In this document: piece after piece, positions 2,739 through 44,099 of the stretch
Layout: each line of letters begins with the position of its first letter
Position numbering within the stretch: position 1 is the stretch's first letter
Source of the DNA: Escherichia coli
GTDB taxonomy: Bacteria; Pseudomonadota; Gammaproteobacteria; Enterobacterales; Enterobacteriaceae
Strand: one strand, 5' to 3'
Assembly (NCBI RefSeq): GCF_045037415.1
Contig: NZ_CP173438.1
Length of the DNA: 64,000 nucleotides
Position numbers and translations under genes: made by a program
Notes under the pieces: generated by a model
Seen by the model: only the letters and a program-made list of their open reading frames with translations
Databases searched by the model: none
What the model was told of the DNA's origin: nothing

Positions 2739-3596
2739 GTGAAAGCTGACAACCCTTTTGATCTTTTACTTCCTGCTGCAATGGCCAAAGTGGCCGAAGA
2801 GGCAGGTGTCTATAAAGCAACGAAACATCCGCTTAAGACTTTCTATCTGGCGATTACCGCCGGTGTTTTCATCTCAATCGCATTCGTCTTCTATATCACA
2901 GCAACCACTGGCACAGGTACAATGCCCTTCGGCATGGCAAAACTGATTGGCGGCATTTGCTTCTCTCTGGGGTTGATTCTTTGTGTTGTCTGCGGAGCCG
3001 ATCTCTTTACTTCCACAGTGTTGATTGTTGTTGCCAAGGCGAGTGGGCGCATCACCTGGGGTCAGTTGGCGAAAAACTGGCTAAATGTTTATTTTGGCAA
3101 CCTGGTCGGCGCACTGCTGTTTGTACTTTTAATGTGGCTTTCCGGCGAGTATATGACCGCAAATGGTCAATGGGGACTAAACGTCCTACAAACCGCCGAC
3201 CACAAAGTGCACCATACTTTTATTGAGGCCGTCTGTCTTGGTATCCTGGCAAACCTGATGGTATGTCTGGCAGTATGGATGAGTTATTCTGGCCGCAGCC
3301 TGATGGACAAAGCGTTCATTATGGTGCTGCCGGTCGCGATGTTTGTTGCCAGCGGTTTTGAGCACAGTATCGCAAACATGTTTATGATCCCGATGGGTAT
3401 TGTAATCCGCGACTTCGCATCTCCGGAATTCTGGACCGCTGTCGGTTCTGCACCGGAAAATTTTTCTCACCTGACCGTGATGAACTTCATCACTGATAAC
3501 CTGATTCCGGTTACGATCGGTAATATTATCGGCGGTGGTTTGTTGGTTGGGTTGACATACTGGGTCATTTACCTGCGTGAAAACGATCACCATTAA
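2739..3596 (+). CDS. focA: FocA formate channel
   Basis: ORF 2400..3596; in-frame GTG at 2739 gives MKADNPFDLLLPAAMAKVAEEAGVYKATKHPL..., the FocA N-terminus; polytopic membrane protein. Confidence 0.9.
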   Translation: MKADNPFDLLLPAAMAKVAEEAGVYKATKHPLKTFYLAITAGVFISIAFVFYITATTGTGTMPFGMAKLIGGICFSLGLILCVVCGADLFTSTVLIVVAKASGRITWGQLAKNWLNVYFGNLVGALLFVLLMWLSGEYMTANGQWGLNVLQTADHKVHHTFIEAVCLGILANLMVCLAVWMSYSGRSLMDKAFIMVLPVAMFVASGFEHSIANMFMIPMGIVIRDFASPEFWTAVGSAPENFSHLTVMNFITDNLIPVTIGNIIGGGLLVGLTYWVIYLRENDHH

Positions 3597-31218: not shown

Positions 31219-32019
31219 ATGATTACTCCTGCACAACAACACTGGCAGAACGTGATGGCACAGCGCGCAGGCCGGGCGAATGAAGGTGTGGACCACGCCG
31301 CGTGTACCGCGCATGAAGAGGTGCTGTATCGTCTGCGTCTGGCACAGGCCAGGCTAAAGGCCATACAGGCCAGAAGCGCGAAAGCCGCCATCAAAAAAGA
31401 GTTGTTGCCGGACTTTTCCGGCTGGATTGAGGGAACGCTGGAGGCTGACGGCGGGCAACAGGACGAAGTAATTGCCACGCTGATGGTGTGGGCGATTGAC
31501 TGCGGCGATCTTCCGCTGGCGCTGCGTATTGGTGCATATGTGGTCCGTCACAACCTCATCATGCCGGATAACTTTGGCCGTACTGCTGCCACGGTACTGA
31601 CCGAAGAAATCTGCAACCCGGTACTGACGCAGGCTGGGACGGATGCCGACGCGGATTTATCCGCCTTTATCGAACCACTGGACACACTTTGGGAAATTAT
31701 CGCCAACCAGGACATGCCGGACGAAGTGCGCGCCAAATTATGCAAGGCGTGTGCCTTTGCCCGTCGTGGCCTGACCGATGCAGACAACATGGCCTCATCA
31801 CTGAAGCTGCTGCGCGAAGCGATGCACCTGAACCCGAACGCAGGTGTGAAACGCGAGATTGCAACCCTTTCCCGCGCCCTGAAAAAAGCCGATTCCGCAG
31901 CCGAACCAGAAGACGCCAGCGCACAGCAGGCGCAGGACGAAAGCAGCAAAAGTAAAAAGACAACGCGGAAGCCTGCAACACGAAAAACCACCGCGACGCA
32001 GAAGGCAAAGCGCGGTTAA
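31219..32019 (+). CDS. Terminase small / endonuclease subunit (P2 gpM-like)
   Basis: 266 aa with a basic Lys/Thr-rich C-terminal tail; position after N. Confidence 0.8.
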   Translation: MITPAQQHWQNVMAQRAGRANEGVDHAACTAHEEVLYRLRLAQARLKAIQARSAKAAIKKELLPDFSGWIEGTLEADGGQQDEVIATLMVWAIDCGDLPLALRIGAYVVRHNLIMPDNFGRTAATVLTEEICNPVLTQAGTDADADLSAFIEPLDTLWEIIANQDMPDEVRAKLCKACAFARRGLTDADNMASSLKLLREAMHLNPNAGVKREIATLSRALKKADSAAEPEDASAQQAQDESSKSKKTTRKPATRKTTATQKAKRG

Positions 32020-35961: not shown

Positions 35962-36429
35962 ATGCTTAAGACAAACAGTCTGCGAGAGTCCATGCTTCAT
36001 GGGTGTCGGTGGTGCCAGGCTAATCCCGAGAAATTCACCATTTTCGTGGAGAGCGGCAACATTGAAACGACCGGAGAAGCGCCCTCGTTTGTTTACCGCT
36101 ATCAGATGGTGATGTTTGTCATGGATTACGCCGGAGAGCTGGACGACCTCACGCTGCCGCTGCTGGCGTGGTTATCCGAAAATCAGCCACAGTTGTTGCT
36201 CAATCCGGAGCGTAATCAGGACATCAAATTTTCTGCCGTTATCAATGACGATGACAGCGCCGATCTCCTGTTTACGCTCCCCCTGCGGGAACGCGTTCGC
36301 ATCACGCGCAACAGTCAGGGCACACCGCAGGCAGAACACCTGCCGGAGCCAAAACCCCGTCTGCCTTCTTCCGAAGGCGACTGGTCGCATGTATTCCAGG
36401 ATGTGACGTGGGGTGAAAGCGATGGATAA
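35962..36429 (+). CDS. Tail completion protein (P2 gpR-like)
   Basis: 155 aa, same as P2 R; position before S-V-W-J-I. Confidence 0.75.
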   Translation: MLKTNSLRESMLHGCRWCQANPEKFTIFVESGNIETTGEAPSFVYRYQMVMFVMDYAGELDDLTLPLLAWLSENQPQLLLNPERNQDIKFSAVINDDDSADLLFTLPLRERVRITRNSQGTPQAEHLPEPKPRLPSSEGDWSHVFQDVTWGESDG

Positions 36430-37057
36430 GGCATTCACCCGCGTGGATGAAACCTTTGAGGCTATCCGCGACAGCCTGAATCAGCAGGCCATCAATAACA
36501 TCGCCAGAAAGCTGGCACAGGATTTACGTCGCGCCCAGCAGGCACGTATCCGGTCACAAAAAGCGCCGGACGGGACCGAATGGACACCACGCAGACGCCG
36601 CGTAACCCGGATACAGGAGCGCATTCGCTTTATCTGGAATAACGAAGCACGCACGCTGAAAAACTGGCATCACGACACAGGGAAATACGGGCGAACCATT
36701 ACCGGGTGGGATGAGGATAAAAACAATATCCGCACGTTTTACCGGGATGACATCGACCGTTTTCTGGAAATACGCACCCGGCGCATCAACCAGGACAGCA
36801 CAAAGCGCGTCCCCATGTTCGTAAAACTGCGCACCGCCCGCTACCTGAAAGCCCGTGCAGATGCCTCCGGTGTGACGGTGGGTTACAGCGGCGTGGCCGC
36901 ACGTATTGCACGCGTTCATCAGTTCGGTGAGCGCGATCAGGTTGCGCCGGGCATTTTCACCGATTACCCGGTACGTGAGCTGTTGGGTATCAGCCAGGCA
37001 GATGAGCGCCTGATTTATAACACGGTGCTGGGCCGGATTGCGGAGGCTGTACGGTGA
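36413..37057 (+). CDS. Tail completion / virion morphogenesis protein (P2 gpS-like)
   Basis: 214 aa; follows R and overlaps its end. Confidence 0.7.
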   Translation: MKAMDKAFTRVDETFEAIRDSLNQQAINNIARKLAQDLRRAQQARIRSQKAPDGTEWTPRRRRVTRIQERIRFIWNNEARTLKNWHHDTGKYGRTITGWDEDKNNIRTFYRDDIDRFLEIRTRRINQDSTKRVPMFVKLRTARYLKARADASGVTVGYSGVAARIARVHQFGERDQVAPGIFTDYPVRELLGISQADERLIYNTVLGRIAEAVR

Positions 37058-37635
37058 GCGCAGAACTCATGCGACTGCTGAGCAACATCATCCGCACCGG
37101 GATCATCTCTGAAGTTGATGAGAAGTCCTGGCGCGTGCGCGTTCGCAGCGGCGAACTGGAAACAGGCTGGTTGCGCTGGAACACCACGCGCGCGGGAGCC
37201 TTCAATGTGTGGCTGCCGCCATCACCAGGCGAACAGGTGGTAATTGCCTGCATTGGCGGCAACCCGGAAACCGCCATGATAATTGGCAGCCTGTGGAGTG
37301 ATGCCAGTCCGGCCCCCGGCAAAAGCCTGAAAGAAATCGTGGTCAGCGCGCCGGATGGCGCGGTGTTCCGCTACGACGCAGACGCTGGCGCACTGAGCGC
37401 CAGCGGCATGAAAACAGCCACCCTGCAGGCATCCGTCAGCGTGACACTGGATACGCCCGTCGTGGAATGCACAAACCTTCTGAGAACGGCGACGCTTGAC
37501 GTCACAAAAGAGGGAAAGATGAGCGGCAATATCACGCACAGCGGCGGCAATTTCACCTCAAACGGCATTACCGTGCATACGCATAAGCACGGTGGCGTTA
37601 AAGGTGGCAGCGATTCGACAGGAGGCCCGCAGTGA
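37054..37635 (+). CDS. Baseplate assembly protein V (spike, P2 gpV-like)
   Basis: 193 aa; GTG start after RBS ggagg; synteny. Confidence 0.8.
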   Translation: MSAELMRLLSNIIRTGIISEVDEKSWRVRVRSGELETGWLRWNTTRAGAFNVWLPPSPGEQVVIACIGGNPETAMIIGSLWSDASPAPGKSLKEIVVSAPDGAVFRYDADAGALSASGMKTATLQASVSVTLDTPVVECTNLLRTATLDVTKEGKMSGNITHSGGNFTSNGITVHTHKHGGVKGGSDSTGGPQ

Positions 37636-37982
37636 CAACCCGCTACACAGGAATGAACCCGGACGGGACGGGAAACCTGAACGATATGGAGCACCTGAAA
37701 CAGTCAGTCAGGGACATCCTGATCACCCCGCTGGCAAGCCGGGTTATGCGACGGGAATATGGCAGCCTTGTGCCTGATTTGATTGACGAACCCATGAATA
37801 ACACCACGCGTCTGCAATGCATGAGTGCTGCCGTGATTGCGCTGACACGATGGGAACCCCGCATTGCCCTGGACGCCATCGACGTTGTCTGGAAGGCAGG
37901 AGGCCGCGCCGGGGTGACGCTGTCGGGCACTGTCATGCAGACCATGCAGAATGTTGAATTAACCATCACGCTGAGAGAGTAA
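37632..37982 (+). CDS. Baseplate protein W (gp25-like)
   Basis: 116 aa (P2 W is 115); synteny. Confidence 0.8.
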   Translation: MTTRYTGMNPDGTGNLNDMEHLKQSVRDILITPLASRVMRREYGSLVPDLIDEPMNNTTRLQCMSAAVIALTRWEPRIALDAIDVVWKAGGRAGVTLSGTVMQTMQNVELTITLRE

Positions 37983-37985
37983 ATC

Positions 37986-38882
37986 ATGCCTGCTGTTGAT
38001 CTTTCCCAGTTACCGGAACCCGCCATCATCGCGGAGCCTGATTTTGAGGCAATTCTGGCTGACACAAAGGCCATGATGATTGCGTCCTATCCTGCCGAAC
38101 AGCGTGAAGCCGTCTCCGCCGCGCTGGAGCTGGAATCAGAACCCCTGAACGTTATCGCTCAAACCATGTCGTTTCGTGAAATGCTGTTACGCCAGCGGGT
38201 TAACGAGGGCGCACGCGCCTGCATGTTAAGCCACGGTTCAGGGACAAACCTGGACAACCTCGCGGGCAATATGAACACAAAGCGCCTGGTTATCACTCCG
38301 GCAACGGATACCACCGACGCGGTGATGGAGAGCGACACCTCGCTGAGACTGCGGGCGCAGCGGGCGTATGACGGCCTGAGTGTTGCTGGCCCGTCAGGTG
38401 CATACGAGTATTTTGCACGCAGCGCCAGCGGTCTGGTGCGTGATGCGCGGGCCATCAGCCCGTCTCCGGCCTGTGTGACGGTTTCCATTCTGTCCACTGA
38501 AGGCGACGGCACAGCAACGGAGGCGTTGCTTAATACCGTTCGCGCCGTTCTGAATGCAGAGGATACCCGCCCGGTGGCCGACCGACTGACCGTACAGAGC
38601 GCCAGCATCGTGACATGGCGGCTGAATGCAAAACTGTACTTTTACCCCGGCCCGGAATCCGAACCTATTCTGGCTGCGGCTGAATCGTCGTTCAGGAAGT
38701 GGCTGGCTGAGCAGGGGCTTATTGGTCAGGACGTGGCGTTGTCAGCCATTGCTGCCGCACTTCATGTGCACGGCGTGCAACGCGTGGAGATAATCGAACC
38801 CACACAGAATATGGCCATCAGCGACATACAGGCGGCGCGCTGTGAGTCATTCACCATCAGCGAAGGTGGGCGTAATGAGTAA
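37986..38882 (+). CDS. Baseplate protein J
   Basis: 298 aa (P2 J is about 302); synteny. Confidence 0.8.
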   Translation: MPAVDLSQLPEPAIIAEPDFEAILADTKAMMIASYPAEQREAVSAALELESEPLNVIAQTMSFREMLLRQRVNEGARACMLSHGSGTNLDNLAGNMNTKRLVITPATDTTDAVMESDTSLRLRAQRAYDGLSVAGPSGAYEYFARSASGLVRDARAISPSPACVTVSILSTEGDGTATEALLNTVRAVLNAEDTRPVADRLTVQSASIVTWRLNAKLYFYPGPESEPILAAAESSFRKWLAEQGLIGQDVALSAIAAALHVHGVQRVEIIEPTQNMAISDIQAARCESFTISEGGRNE

Positions 38883-39405
38883 TTCACTGTTACCGCCATC
38901 AGCCAGCAATTTCATGCGTTGCGCCGAAGCTGTCGGAGCGCGCATTACAGACATCCCGGTAGACCTCAACACGCTGTGGTCACCGGACACCTGCCCGGTG
39001 CATCTGCTGCCTTATCTCGCCTGGGCATTTTCCGTTGACCGCTGGGATCGCAACTGGCCGGAAGAGACAAAGCGACAGGTGATTCGTGATGCATGGCTGA
39101 TACACCGACACAAAGGGACCATCAGCGCACTGCGCCGGGCCATTGAGCCGCTGGGATACCTCATTCGCGTGTCTGAGTGGTGGGAGTTCGGCGGAGAACC
39201 GGGAACATTTACCGTTGAAGTCGGCACGCTGGACAGTGGCGTGACGGAGGAAATGTATCTGGAAATGGAGCGGTTGATTGCTGATGCCCGCCCGGTCAGC
39301 CGCCACATGACAGGGCTGAATATCATTCAGGAGATTCAGGGAGATATTTTCGCGGCGGCAGCAACTTACGACGGCGAAGTCATTACCATTTATCCGGACG
39401 ATTAA
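38875..39405 (+). CDS. Baseplate / tail protein I
   Basis: ATG 38875 overlapping the J stop; 176 aa as for P2 I. Confidence 0.8.
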   Translation: MSNSLLPPSASNFMRCAEAVGARITDIPVDLNTLWSPDTCPVHLLPYLAWAFSVDRWDRNWPEETKRQVIRDAWLIHRHKGTISALRRAIEPLGYLIRVSEWWEFGGEPGTFTVEVGTLDSGVTEEMYLEMERLIADARPVSRHMTGLNIIQEIQGDIFAAAATYDGEVITIYPDD

Positions 39406-39407
39406 GC

Positions 39408-41393
39408 ATGAGTACCACAACACGTAAATTTAAAACCGTTATCACCGATACGGGTGCCAAAAAATTAGCTCAGGCAGCCGCGCCAGATGGTAAGCCTGTC
39501 CGCCTGACTCATATGGCCGTGGGCGACGGTGGCGGCACGTTGCCCACACCAGACAGTAAGCAGACCCGTCTGGTGCATGAGGTGTGGCGACATACTGTTA
39601 ATCGCGTCATCCTGGACGCAACACATCAGAACCGCATTATTGCGGAGCTGGTTATTCCTCCTGAAACGGGCGGATTCTGGATCCGGGAAATTGGTGTATT
39701 TGATGAGCACGGCGATTTAATCGCGGTGGGCAATACTGCCGAAAGTTACAAGCCAGCCGTTGCCGAAGGGTCCGGTCGTGCACAAACATTTCGCACCATT
39801 CTGACCGTATCCAGCACTGCCACCGTGGTGCTTACCGTGGATAACACCATGGTGATGGCCACAGTGGATTACGTGGATGACAAACTGAAAGAGCATGAAC
39901 AGTCACGACGTCACCCGGACGCCTCGCTGACCGCAAAAGGCTTTGTTCAACTCAGTAGCGCCACTAACAGCGTGTCTGAAACGCAGGCTGCAACGCCGAA
40001 AGCAGTAAAGGCCGCGTATGACCTTGCTAACGGTAAATATACTGCGCAGGATGCCAGCACGACGCGAAAAGGCCTTGTCCAGCTCAGTAGCGCCACCAAC
40101 AGCACGTCTGAAACGCAGGCTGCAACGCCGAAAGCAGTAAAGGCCGCGTATGACCTTGCTAACGCAAAATATACCGCTCAGGACGCCACGACGGCACAAA
40201 AAGGGATAGTCCAGCTCAGTAGTGCCACCAACAGCACGTCTGAAACACTGGCCGCGACATCGAAAGCTGTTAAGGCGGTAATGGATGAAACGAACAAGAA
40301 AGCGCCCTTAAATAGTCCTGCACTGACCGGAACGCCAACAACACCAACTGCGCGACAGGGAACGAATAATACCCAAATCGCAAGCACGGCTTTCGTTATG
40401 GCTGCGATTGCCGCCCTTGTAGATTCGTCACCTGATGCACTGAACACGCTGAACGAGCTGGCTGCGGCGCTGGGCAACGACCCGAATTTTGCGACCACCA
40501 TGACTAACGCGCTTGCGGGTAAGCAACCGAAAGATGCCACCCTGACGGCGCTGGCCGGACTTACTACTGCGGCAGGCAAGTTTCCGTATTTTACGGGGAA
40601 TGATGTCGCCAGCCTGGCAACCCTGACAAAAGTCGGGCGGGATATTCTTGCGAAATCGACCGTTGCTGCCGTTATCGAATACCTCGGTTTACGAGAACTC
40701 GGCACAAGCGGGGAGAAAATACCGTTACTCAGTACAGCGAATACCTGGACCAATCGACAAACATTCAGCGGTGGCCTTTCTGGGGAACTGTCCGGCAATG
40801 CCGCTACTGCAACAAAGCTGAAAACAGCACGAAAAATTGCTGGAGTTGGTTTTGATGGTTCTAGCGATATTTCAATTAGTGCCAAAAATGTCAATGCATT
40901 TGCACTCCGACAAACAGGTAATACTGTTAATGGTGATACATCCGTTGGATGGAATTGGGATAGTGGTGCATATAACGCCATGATTGGTGGTGCATCTGCA
41001 TTAATTCTTCACTTTAATATAAATGCTGGTAGCTGTCCTGCCGTACAATTCCGTGTGAATTATAAAAATGGTGGCATTTCCTACAGGTCGGCTCGTGATG
41101 GTTATGGGTTTGAATTAGGTTGGTCAGATTTCTATACCACGACACGAAAACCTTCAGCGGGAGATGTTGGTGCATATACGCGGACAGAATGTAACTCAAG
41201 GTTTATTACAGGTATTCGCCTTGGCGGTCTGTCATCTGTTCAGACATGGAATGGTCCCGGCTGGTCTGACAGGTCAGGTTATGTCGTTACGGGTTCAGTT
41301 AACGGAAACCGTGATGAATTAATTGATACAACACAGGCAAGGCCAATTCAGTATTGCATTAATGGGACGTGGTATAACGCGGGGAGTATTTAA
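39408..41393 (+). CDS. Tail fibre protein (P2 gpH-like); C-terminal third lies inside the invertible segment
   Basis: 661 aa; internal 44-aa tandem repeats; the gix-like crossover site at 40672..40697 lies inside the gene. Confidence 0.85.
   Translation: MSTTTRKFKTVITDTGAKKLAQAAAPDGKPVRLTHMAVGDGGGTLPTPDSKQTRLVHEVWRHTVNRVILDATHQNRIIAELVIPPETGGFWIREIGVFDEHGDLIAVGNTAESYKPAVAEGSGRAQTFRTILTVSSTATVVLTVDNTMVMATVDYVDDKLKEHEQSRRHPDASLTAKGFVQLSSATNSVSETQAATPKAVKAAYDLANGKYTAQDASTTRKGLVQLSSATNSTSETQAATPKAVKAAYDLANAKYTAQDATTAQKGIVQLSSATNSTSETLAATSKAVKAVMDETNKKAPLNSPALTGTPTTPTARQGTNNTQIASTAFVMAAIAALVDSSPDALNTLNELAAALGNDPNFATTMTNALAGKQPKDATLTALAGLTTAAGKFPYFTGNDVASLATLTKVGRDILAKSTVAAVIEYLGLRELGTSGEKIPLLSTANTWTNRQTFSGGLSGELSGNAATATKLKTARKIAGVGFDGSSDISISAKNVNAFALRQTGNTVNGDTSVGWNWDSGAYNAMIGGASALILHFNINAGSCPAVQFRVNYKNGGISYRSARDGYGFELGWSDFYTTTRKPSAGDVGAYTRTECNSRFITGIRLGGLSSVQTWNGPGWSDRSGYVVTGSVNGNRDELIDTTQARPIQYCINGTWYNAGSI
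39937..40290 (+). repeat. Three tandem 132-bp (44-codon) repeats within the tail-fibre gene
   Basis: Units begin at about 39937, 40069 and 40201, each encoding KG-VQLSSATNS-SETQAATPKAVKAAYDLAN-KYTAQDA; the third is diverged. Confidence 0.75.
40672..40697. promoter_or_regulatory. gix/cix-like invertase crossover site (left)
   Basis: ttatcgaatacctcggtttacgagaa, compared with recalled Mu gixL TTATCCAAAACCTCGGTTTACAGGAA; in inverted orientation to the site at 43420..43445. Confidence 0.7.
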
Positions 41394-41395
41394 CG

Positions 41396-41929
41396 ATGAT
41401 GCACTTAAAAAACATTACTGCTGGCAACCCTAAAACAAAAGAGCAATACCAGCTAACAAAGCAATTTAACATCAAATGGCTTTATTCAGCTGATGGAAAA
41501 AACTGGTATGAGGAACAAAAGAATTTCCAGCCAGACACTTTGAAAATGGTCTATGACCATAACGGCGTTATTATTTGTATTGAAAAGGATGTTTCAGCAA
41601 TTAATCCGGAAGGCGCAAGCGTCGTTGAATTACCTGATATTACAGCAAATCGCCGGGCTGATATTTCGGGGAAATGGATGTTCAAAGATGGCGTAGTGGT
41701 AAAGCGAACTTATACCGAGGAAGAGCAGAGGCAACAAGCGGAAAATGAAAAGCAGAGCCTGTTGCAACTTGTCAGGGATAAAACTCAGCTATGGGACTCA
41801 CAGCTACGGCTGGGCATCATTTCCGACGAGAATAAACAAAAATTAACCGAGTGGATGCTCTATGCGCAGAAAGTCGAATCCACAGACACCTCCAGCCTGC
41901 CAGTAACATTTCCCGAACAACCTGAATGA
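41396..41929 (+). CDS. Tail fibre assembly chaperone (P2 gpG-like), variant 1
   Basis: 177 aa, [40 protein letters not shown]... Confidence 0.8.
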   Translation: MMHLKNITAGNPKTKEQYQLTKQFNIKWLYSADGKNWYEEQKNFQPDTLKMVYDHNGVIICIEKDVSAINPEGASVVELPDITANRRADISGKWMFKDGVVVKRTYTEEEQRQQAENEKQSLLQLVRDKTQLWDSQLRLGIISDENKQKLTEWMLYAQKVESTDTSSLPVTFPEQPE

Positions 41930-41957
41930 GACAAGGCCCGATAACGGGCCTTAATTT

Positions 41958-42485
41958 TTATTCAGGCTTTTGTGGCCATTCAGGATTTGCCGTATCCACA
42001 CGGTTGACCAGAACACTGTAGCGTTCCCATGCTTCCAGTCGTGTGCGTTCCTCGTCTGTTGCCATATTCAGCCTGACAGCGCGTTCCAGCGGCTGGATGA
42101 CTGATTCAGCTTCGGAAAGCAATGCGGCCTTTTGTGATTCGGCCTGTTGTTGCTGTTCGTCAGCCGTATAAATCCGTTTAACCACAGCTCCGTCCTTAAA
42201 CATCCACTTACCGGAATCATCGGTCCGACGATTGGCCGTTATATCGGGAACCTCGACGACGCTAAAACCTTCGGGATTAAGCGTGGAGGCATCTCTGGTG
42301 ATGGCGACAATAATATTATTTTCATCGTAAACAATCTTTATGGTGTCTGGCTGAAAGTTTTTCACTTCCTCATACCAGTTTTTTCCGTCCTCAGAGTAAA
42401 GCCAGATAACTCCGTGTTTCTTTGTTAACTCATACTGTTCCAGTGTTTTAGCATTACCCGCTTTTATGTTCTTTAAGTGCATCAT
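41958..42485 (-). CDS. Tail fibre assembly chaperone, variant 2 (alternative cassette)
   Basis: 175 aa, [40 protein letters not shown]...; a paralogue of the + strand G gene inside the invertible segment. Confidence 0.8.
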
Positions 42486-42486
42486 A

Positions 42487-43419
42487 TTAAACGCTCGCTA
42501 CATTATACCAGGTGCCATTTATATACTTTTGAACGGGTCTGTAATAAACACCCGCTATATTATCGGCAGAGTTAGACCCTGTATCCTGAACATTAATACC
42601 AGACAATACATGACCTGAAGGGCACTGGAAATTCCATGTTCGCCAGTTGTTCACTCCATAATATTGCTGTGAACCAAGTCGAACATCTTTCACATAACGG
42701 GAATCAAAGTTACCGTAATCCGAGGGATTAACACGCCCCGTAATATTTATGGTCTTATTACTTTGAATGCTTCCGGGAACAAAGCGCATAACATGGACGT
42801 AATTAGCATAAACATCCAGATTACCATCGCCATTTTGTTTAAAGCCCGTGTCATTATCACCCAATACAATCGAATTACCGCCAAGAGCACTGGATGTTCC
42901 GATACCCAGTGCACCATTCAGTTGACCACCAGATAACGGCAGTGCACCAACATCTCCTGCTGAAGGTTTTCTGGTGGTGGTGTAAAATTCGGACCAGTCG
43001 GCTTCAAAACCATAACCATCACGGGCTGAACGATAAAAAATACCGCCATTTTTATAATTAATCCGAAACTGAGCTGCAGGACAACTTCCGTCTCCCATAT
43101 AAAAATGAATAATTAACGTTGATGCACCACCAATATTTGCGTTATAGGCTCCGCTACTCCAGTTCCATCCAACTGCTTTATCATTCGCAACGGTGCTTCC
43201 TGTTTTCCCTAAGGCAAACGCACCAACATGACTTGCTTTTAATGTGATATCGGAGGAACCATCAAAAGCCACATTGCTTATTTTCCTGGCAGTTTTTAAT
43301 TTTGCAGCTGTAGAAGCATTGCCGGATAGTTCACCAGAAAGGCCACCGCTGAATGTTTGTCGATTAGTCCAGGTATTCGCTGTACTGAGTAACGGTATTT
43401 TCTCCCCGCTTGTGCCGAG
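42487..43419 (-). other. Promoterless alternative tail-fibre C-terminal cassette
   Basis: ORF 42487..43272 is the in-frame part; the reverse complement of 43300..43420 nearly repeats H codons at about 40700..40800; expressed only after inversion. Confidence 0.65.
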
Positions 43420-43445
43420 TTCTCGTAAACCGAGGTTTTAAATAA
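43420..43445. promoter_or_regulatory. gix/cix-like invertase crossover site (right)
   Basis: ttctcgtaaaccgaggttttaaataa, compared with recalled Mu gixR TTCCTGTAAACCGAGGTTTTGGATAA. Confidence 0.7.
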
Positions 43446-43499
43446 TGGCCGTTTCTGGCCTGCATGGCATGATTTGCGCTTTTGGACGGGAGATTCAGT

Positions 43500-44099
43500 G
43501 TGCTGATTGGCTATGTAAGGGTATCAACAAATGACCAGAATACAGACCTGCAACGAAACGCTCTTGTTTGTGCAGGATGTGAACAAATATTTGAAGATAA
43601 ATTAAGCGGGACAAAGACAGACCGACCGGGATTAAAACGCGCTTTAAAGCGCCTTCAAAAAGGTGACACGCTGGTTGTCTGGAAACTGGATCGCCTCGGG
43701 CGAAGCATGAAACATCTGATTTCTCTCGTCGGGGAACTACGGGAGCGAGGGATTAATTTTCGCAGTCTGACCGACAGCATAGACACATCTTCTCCAATGG
43801 GGCGTTTTTTCTTCCACGTGATGGGTGCCCTGGCTGAAATGGAACGTGAATTAATTGTTGAACGTACACTGGCCGGGCTGGCGGCAGCGCGCGCAAGGGG
43901 GCGCACAGGCGGACGTCGACCGAAGCTGACAAAAGAACAGCATGAGCAAATAGCAAGGCTAATCAAAAACGGGCACGACAGAAAACAACTGGCAATAATT
44001 TACGGCATTGGCACATCGACGATTTATCGTTATCACCCTGTAGGCGATATACAGACTGAAGAAACAACCGGGCAGACTCAGGAAAATGAAAACCGCTAA
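43500..44099 (+). CDS. Serine DNA invertase (Gin/Pin/Cin/Hin family)
   Basis: GTG start gives MLIGYVRVSTNDQNTDLQRNALVCAGCEQIFEDKLSG..., close to recalled Gin/Pin; catalytic Ser in VRVSTNDQ. Confidence 0.85.
   Translation: MLIGYVRVSTNDQNTDLQRNALVCAGCEQIFEDKLSGTKTDRPGLKRALKRLQKGDTLVVWKLDRLGRSMKHLISLVGELRERGINFRSLTDSIDTSSPMGRFFFHVMGALAEMERELIVERTLAGLAAARARGRTGGRRPKLTKEQHEQIARLIKNGHDRKQLAIIYGIGTSTIYRYHPVGDIQTEETTGQTQENENR

Follow-up and report, generated by a model that had tools for sequence, protein, structure and literature searches.

The phage tail fibre repeat Pf2 (PF03406, Phage_fiber_2) has long been recognised in the Stf protein of phage lambda and in the H protein of phage P2 (PMC3368898). 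In both P2 gpH and lambda Stf it carries the motif KGxVQLSSATNSxSETxAATPKAVK, and conservation of the motif reaches not only lambda Stf but also the S protein of phage Mu. Among PDB sequences, searched both with a single sequence and with a profile of 21 units (one of them Mu-derived, the single-sequence search having already found Mu S), the Mu tail fibre S is the only solved protein with the Pf2 motif, at aa 117-159; the other profile matches (E > 0.04) were set aside as chance. Mu S (gp49; PDB 5YVQ, 8JU3, 9KI1) has this one unit in its constant part, followed by a Gin-type switched tip (PMC11915804), and a description of the aa 117-159 segment was not found in the Mu S papers examined. The side tail fibres EPclA-D of EHEC prophages also contain Pf2, their alleles vary in length by whole structural periods, and in rotary-shadowed EHEC prophage fibres a small globular knob that lies between two stalks has been tentatively attributed to Pf2 (PMC3368898). 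Finally, phage P88 and its relatives in Xuanwuvirus have the same three units as the fibre described here, and their invertible segment is arranged in the same way, with an invertase and two genes for assembly proteins.

The tail-fibre gene H analysed here (39408-41393, + strand, 661 aa) lies in a stretch of 64,000 nucleotides of an Escherichia coli contig (NZ_CP173438.1), referred to below as the window. Its product matches PF12571 (180 bits), PF03406 three times (203 bits) and, weakly, gp37_C; the PF12571 match is to an N-terminal tail-collar fibre domain for baseplate attachment (aa 6-153, 39423-39866, + strand, E 2.5e-53). H belongs to a P88-like (Xuanwuvirus, P2-family) E. coli prophage. 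Over its first 1285 nt it has 98.4% DNA identity to H of phage P88, with other Xuanwuvirus members similarly at about 98%, and over nt 229-1285 it has 85% identity to P2 gene H. At least 1000 contigs encode exactly this H protein (P0108). Around the repeats, a 751-nt segment (39750-40500) shows 100% identity in the complete E. coli genomes sampled, ST131 strains EC958 and JJ1886 among them; 220 E. coli genome records match it at 99% or more, and roughly 1800 E. coli genomes contain a match. The gene order is the V-W-J-I-H-G of P2: Phage_base_V, GPW_gp25, Baseplate_J and Tail_P2_I adjoin the H homologue on its upstream side, as read in loci L004 (100% identical over the stretch) and L087 (identical over the 751-nt query segment).

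Some features of the wider prophage were observed in passing. In L087 (E. coli 4/1-1, NZ_CP023844.1, 19659-21881) H has 740 aa against 661 aa in the window, despite 100% identity over 39750-40500; its different variable end may come from the invertible segment described below, in its opposite orientation or with another cassette. The gpM gene, intact in the window (31219-32019), is annotated with an internal stop in the L087 strain. The window contains no tRNA genes.

All three repeat units fall within PF03406, with 203 bits against a gathering cut-off of 22, and the best stretch spans profile positions 1-42 of 42. The setting is that of the family: a tail-fibre protein with PF12571, a Caudo_TAP gene downstream and contiguous units spaced 44 aa apart. 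The window units share with P2 gpH and lambda Stf the motif, the protein class and the place after the N-terminal attachment domain. In this arrangement P2 gpH has two units and the window three, and nothing else differs; Mu S differs in its N-terminal domain and has only one unit. In EPclA-D the length-variable parts are Gly-X-Y triplets and heptads (collagen-like and coiled-coil), whereas in the window H it is the 44-aa Pf2 unit itself. The repeat is therefore already known, as a curated Pfam family in a common and known prophage.

Structure of the array

Tandem Repeats Finder places one array at 39935-40276, with a period of 132, 2.6 copies, 86% matches, no indels and a score of 488, and a repeat search of the window finds three copies from 39917 on, spaced by exactly 132 nt. 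The 132-bp periodicity at 39936-40331 is real and far above chance, and it is in frame with H, so that 132 nt correspond to a 44-aa period. Unit 1 (39936-40067, + strand, aa 177-220) reads KGFVQLSSATNSVSETQAATPKAVKAAYDLANGKYTAQDASTTR and is a PF03406 stretch; unit 2 (40068-40199, + strand, aa 221-264) contains the best such stretch, at aa 217-258. The terminal unit 3 (40200-40331, + strand, aa 265-308) keeps the motif to about its nt 84 (40283, '...AATSKAVKA') and then passes into a P2-type shaft, VMDETNKKAPLNSPALTG. A lead-in with the residues DASLTA (39917-39935, + strand) already resembles the 3' tail of a repeat unit, comparable to DASTTR before unit 2 and DATTAQ before unit 3.

The units are not equally alike. 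Units 1 and 2 match at 116 of 132 nt (88%) and 38 of 44 aa, whereas unit 3 matches them at 79/132 and 83/132 nt respectively (60-63%), a divergence of about 40%. Similarity of unit 3 to the other two is confined to its first 84 nt, where 61-66 positions match, and there is none past about nt 84. Two full units that resemble each other are thus followed by a terminal unit that is both diverged and truncated. An earlier note on this DNA had described three nearly identical 44-aa units at 39937-40290; the tandem 132-bp array is indeed present, but close similarity holds for units 1 and 2 only, and those limits begin one base out of frame and end inside unit 3.

Long antisense ORFs at 39903-40199 and 40178-40981 (both - strand) overlap the repeat and shaft region of H. 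A Pfam search with them gave no match above the cut-off, and they are probably non-coding artefacts of the repeat.

Age of the units and exchange in the 59-nt core

The earlier note had also called the three units the result of a recent duplication. Read in this way, they would have been copied in this prophage and would still be nearly identical at the DNA level, and a perfect 59-nt core within an overall identity of 88% between units 1 and 2 is what might be expected. Against this stand the 16 differences between the two units, which comprise six synonymous and six non-synonymous codon differences, and the much larger divergence of unit 3. The 12% divergence of units 1 and 2 is about equal to that between P2 and the window in the neighbouring part of H (85% identity). 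Phages P88, 503458, 520873 and P884B11, whose H genes are 2-3% diverged, share the three units down to the diagnostic differences, and in the sampled E. coli genomes the array shows 100% identity; since the H of P88 differs by about 2%, the three-unit state is older than the spread of the prophage group. Among IMG/VR relatives, adjacent non-terminal units match at 89-132 of 132 nt, with a median of about 115, and two of the 46 pairs are 100% identical. The 116/132 of the window is typical of adjacent units in the Pf2 fibre family, and truly recent duplicates (132/132) look different. Divergence at the DNA level, which the note itself had regarded as the mark of an ancient rather than a recent repeat, is what was found. 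In its present form the array is therefore no recent duplication, and an origin of all three units in this way is very unlikely.

A narrower event is suggested by the distribution of the differences. A 59-nt core is identical in unit 1 (39974-40032, + strand) and unit 2 (40106-40164, + strand), and all 16 mismatches lie outside it; a run of at least 59 matches would arise by random placement with P = 0.0005. The core has no synonymous change between the two units, and its flanks have all six. A generally invariant core was considered as the cause of this identity and rejected: across 22 distinct arrays the core shows 85-88% identity both within and between arrays, no higher than the flanks, and the orthologous core of P2 differs from that of the window at 5-6 of 59 positions. 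Because the core is not generally conserved, its identity in units 1 and 2 reflects a later exchange, by gene conversion or crossover, and the 59-nt core is the only part with recent, local homogenisation. Unit 2 itself looks chimeric: 36 of its first 37 nt agree with the 5' end of the P2 terminal unit, and the rest is of the unit-1 type. Misaligned exchange that took an array from two units to three would leave just such a unit. The window units are otherwise orthologous to those of P2, at 108-116 of 132 nt, with 116/132 between unit 3 and the P2 terminal unit.

Copy number among related fibres

Comparison with homologous fibres, which the earlier note had proposed as a check, shows that copy number varies among relatives, and its view of the units as a substrate for length variation holds: fibres with N-terminal domains at least 96% identical carry one to eight units. 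P2 and Shae_phiSM (a Citrobacter phage of Xuanwuvirus) have two units and P88 has three; E. coli FDAARGOS_943, a complete genome, has one, the terminal unit alone; and four, five or six occur in database proteins that share the N-terminal domain. In an IMG/VR sample retrieved by the N-terminal domain alone, with 77 usable fibres, 17 fibres have one unit, 25 have two, 16 have three and 14 have four, with one fibre each at five, six, seven and eight. Between close relatives the steps are always of 132 nt (44 aa), and the frame is kept. The one-, two- and three-unit states rest on finished genomes. No paper on Pf2 copy-number variation was found in a literature search, and the P88 paper makes no mention of the repeats, although copy number can be expected to vary when an in-frame tandem repeat forms part of a fibre shaft.

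In one clade, with a fibre N-terminal domain only 60-63% identical to that of the window, the Pf2 motif has a period of 56 aa, not 44, in two to five copies. The IMG/VR loci with this period are L061, L067-L069, L071-L073 and L075-L082, and the fibre gene starts at 3501 in each.

The sequences of the gained and lost units are informative. In Shae_phiSM, whose H is 96.4% identical to that of the window over the first 1285 nt, the first unit joins the 5' end of unit 1 to the 3' end of unit 2. The extra unit of four- and five-unit alleles has the opposite composition, the 5' end of unit 2 followed by the 3' end of unit 1, with 0-3 mismatches to a synthetic chimera of this kind and none in L004 and L088. 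The chimeric units of L004, L088 and L089 lie in H genes that are otherwise 98.4-100% identical. In composition the two kinds of chimeric unit are reciprocal, as a single misaligned exchange would yield, and the exchange points fall in the 59-nt core. Larger changes are also seen: L012 (six units) and L014 (eight units) differ by the triplication of one unit, with adjacent units 100% identical, and L007 has a two-unit duplication.

The closest four-unit allele calls for some caution. L004 (GCA_002886295.1, PGHA01000059.1) is a 6.7-kb draft contig corresponding to 36408-42361 of the window, with one extra 132-nt chimeric unit; apart from this unit, it does not differ from the window in the 3000 nt upstream, anywhere in H or in the 968 nt downstream. 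This allele is either a very recent expansion or an artefact of short-read assembly caused by the 59-nt core, as a de Bruijn assembler with k below 59 that mis-traverses the cycle formed by the core could make both chimeric products. A search of RefSeq complete E. coli genomes for the four-copy array gave no full-cover match at 99% or more, and the top matches were three-copy genomes aligned as two joined pieces. Two chromosome-scale records, OZ038821.1 and CAXJNS010000001.1, do, however, carry the same four-unit array.

These data also bear on a second alternative, in which Pf2 is an ancient structural repeat whose units are kept similar only by selection on the protein, without ongoing exchange of DNA, and copy number differs only through swaps of whole modules. 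The motif is conserved out to Mu S and lambda Stf, and mean identity within arrays (87.2%) is barely above that between arrays (85.3%), which implies that concerted evolution is weak and that most copy-number differences are old. Against this alternative stand a core free of synonymous change beside flanks that have six, although this core is not especially conserved elsewhere, the exact reciprocal chimeras of L004, L088, L089 and Shae_phiSM in otherwise closely similar H genes, and the identical adjacent units of L012 and L014. It is likewise very unlikely. A programmed, high-frequency contingency locus (VNTR-like switching of phase or length, with a role comparable to that of the invertase switch) is very improbable: the in-frame period, the variable copy number and the site in a host-range gene would suit it, but the units are long, their identity is no more than 88% for units 1 and 2 and about 60% for unit 3, perfect homology extends over just 59 nt, the three-unit allele is 100% identical and uniform in length in every sampled E. 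coli genome of the lineage, an isogenic four-unit form is absent from the complete genomes searched, and it is the downstream invertase system that provides the programmed switch of this locus.

The array is very probably the known Pf2 repeat, situated between the attachment domain and the shaft and made length-variable by misaligned recombination in the 59-nt core. Homologous misalignment in this core, through unequal crossing-over or replication slippage, would yield the chimeric units of relatives with one unit more or fewer. Each unit may constitute one structural module of a trimeric proximal shaft, in which case gain or loss of a unit would alter the length or reach of the fibre and leave the receptor-binding tip and the invertase switch untouched. 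A single-sequence AlphaFold2 model of H residues 153-361 (pLDDT 39, pTM 0.22, all-helix) was rejected as unusable.

Module joint, invertible segment and fibre length

The same N-terminal domain (at least 96% identical) is fused to at least three unrelated distal modules, with the point of fusion in the last unit, directly following 'AATPKAVK'. The distal modules begin with AVMDETNKK (P2 type), AANDNANGR (NDNANGR type) or AYDNAEKRLQ (Mu S type), as in L007, L012, L016 and other loci. BLAST matches in E. coli end at query positions 525-527 or begin at 438-475, so that the breakpoints cluster in the last unit; the matches that begin at 438-475 are proteins annotated as lambdoid 'prophage tail fiber N-terminal domain'. 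The last unit is a mosaic joint between the N-terminal domain and the distal fibre modules, and the conserved first ~80 nt of the unit may serve as a patch of homology for swaps of distal modules between phages. In the window the joint is at about 40274, inside unit 3.

Downstream of the repeats lies what is, by its gene content and sites, predicted to be a complete Din-type invertible tail-fibre segment. The left crossover site, 26 bp with the sequence TTATCGAATACCTCGGTTTACGAGAA, is at 40672-40697 (+ strand), where the constant part of H ends (about aa 426), and its inverted partner, the 26-bp right site TTATTTAAAACCTCGGTTTACGAGAA, is at 43420-43445 (- strand). Both agree with crossover sites of the Gin/Cin/Hin type, and it is exactly at these sites that homology between H and the inverted copy begins. 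A tail-fibre assembly protein for the expressed tip (41396-41929, + strand; PF02413 Caudo_TAP, E 3.6e-37) is followed by an alternative assembly protein in the invertible segment (41958-42485, - strand; PF02413, E 4.2e-38) and by an alternative variable C-terminal fibre segment in the silent orientation (42487-43272, - strand), which has a gp37_C match and shares inverted repeats I1 and I2 with H. Beside the segment, whose inverted 26-bp sites have the core AAACCnnGGTTT, is a gene for a serine DNA invertase of the Din/Gin/Cin type (43482-44099, + strand; PF00239 Resolvase, E 1.5e-50; PF02796 HTH_7), which in P88 and Shae_phiSM is annotated 'DNA invertase'. The P88 fibre has a different variable C-terminal part and is longer (765 aa against 661 aa in the window). 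P2 has no invertase, yet its H has the same 'AVIEYLGL' junction as the window. The array lies in the constant part of the fibre, as had been proposed, because it is about 340 nt upstream of the crossover site at 40672-40697.

The adenovirus fibre offers a point of reference: it is trimeric, and the length of its shaft is set by the number of repeat motifs, with the receptor-binding knob unchanged. Adenoviruses are eukaryotic viruses, and their fibre is unrelated to the Pf2 fibre in sequence and fold.

The value of the array for discovery is small, and its practical value is modest. In draft genomes the 59-nt core can cause short-read assemblers to gain or lose one unit, which advises caution in reading fibre lengths from them. 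Those who engineer P2, R-type or tailocin-like fibres could take advantage of Pf2 both as a natural spacer whose length can be adjusted and as a natural site for splicing on new tips. For P2-like fibres, Pf2 copy number, from one to eight, is an easily scored in-frame length polymorphism. Tentatively, and as a possibility rather than the expected outcome, the Pf2 array may act as an evolvable 'length dial', in which steps of 44 aa tune the reach of the tip through O-antigen or capsule, and hence adsorption and host range, and in which the conserved 5' two thirds of the unit double as a patch for the exchange of modules among P2-like, Mu-like and lambdoid phages.
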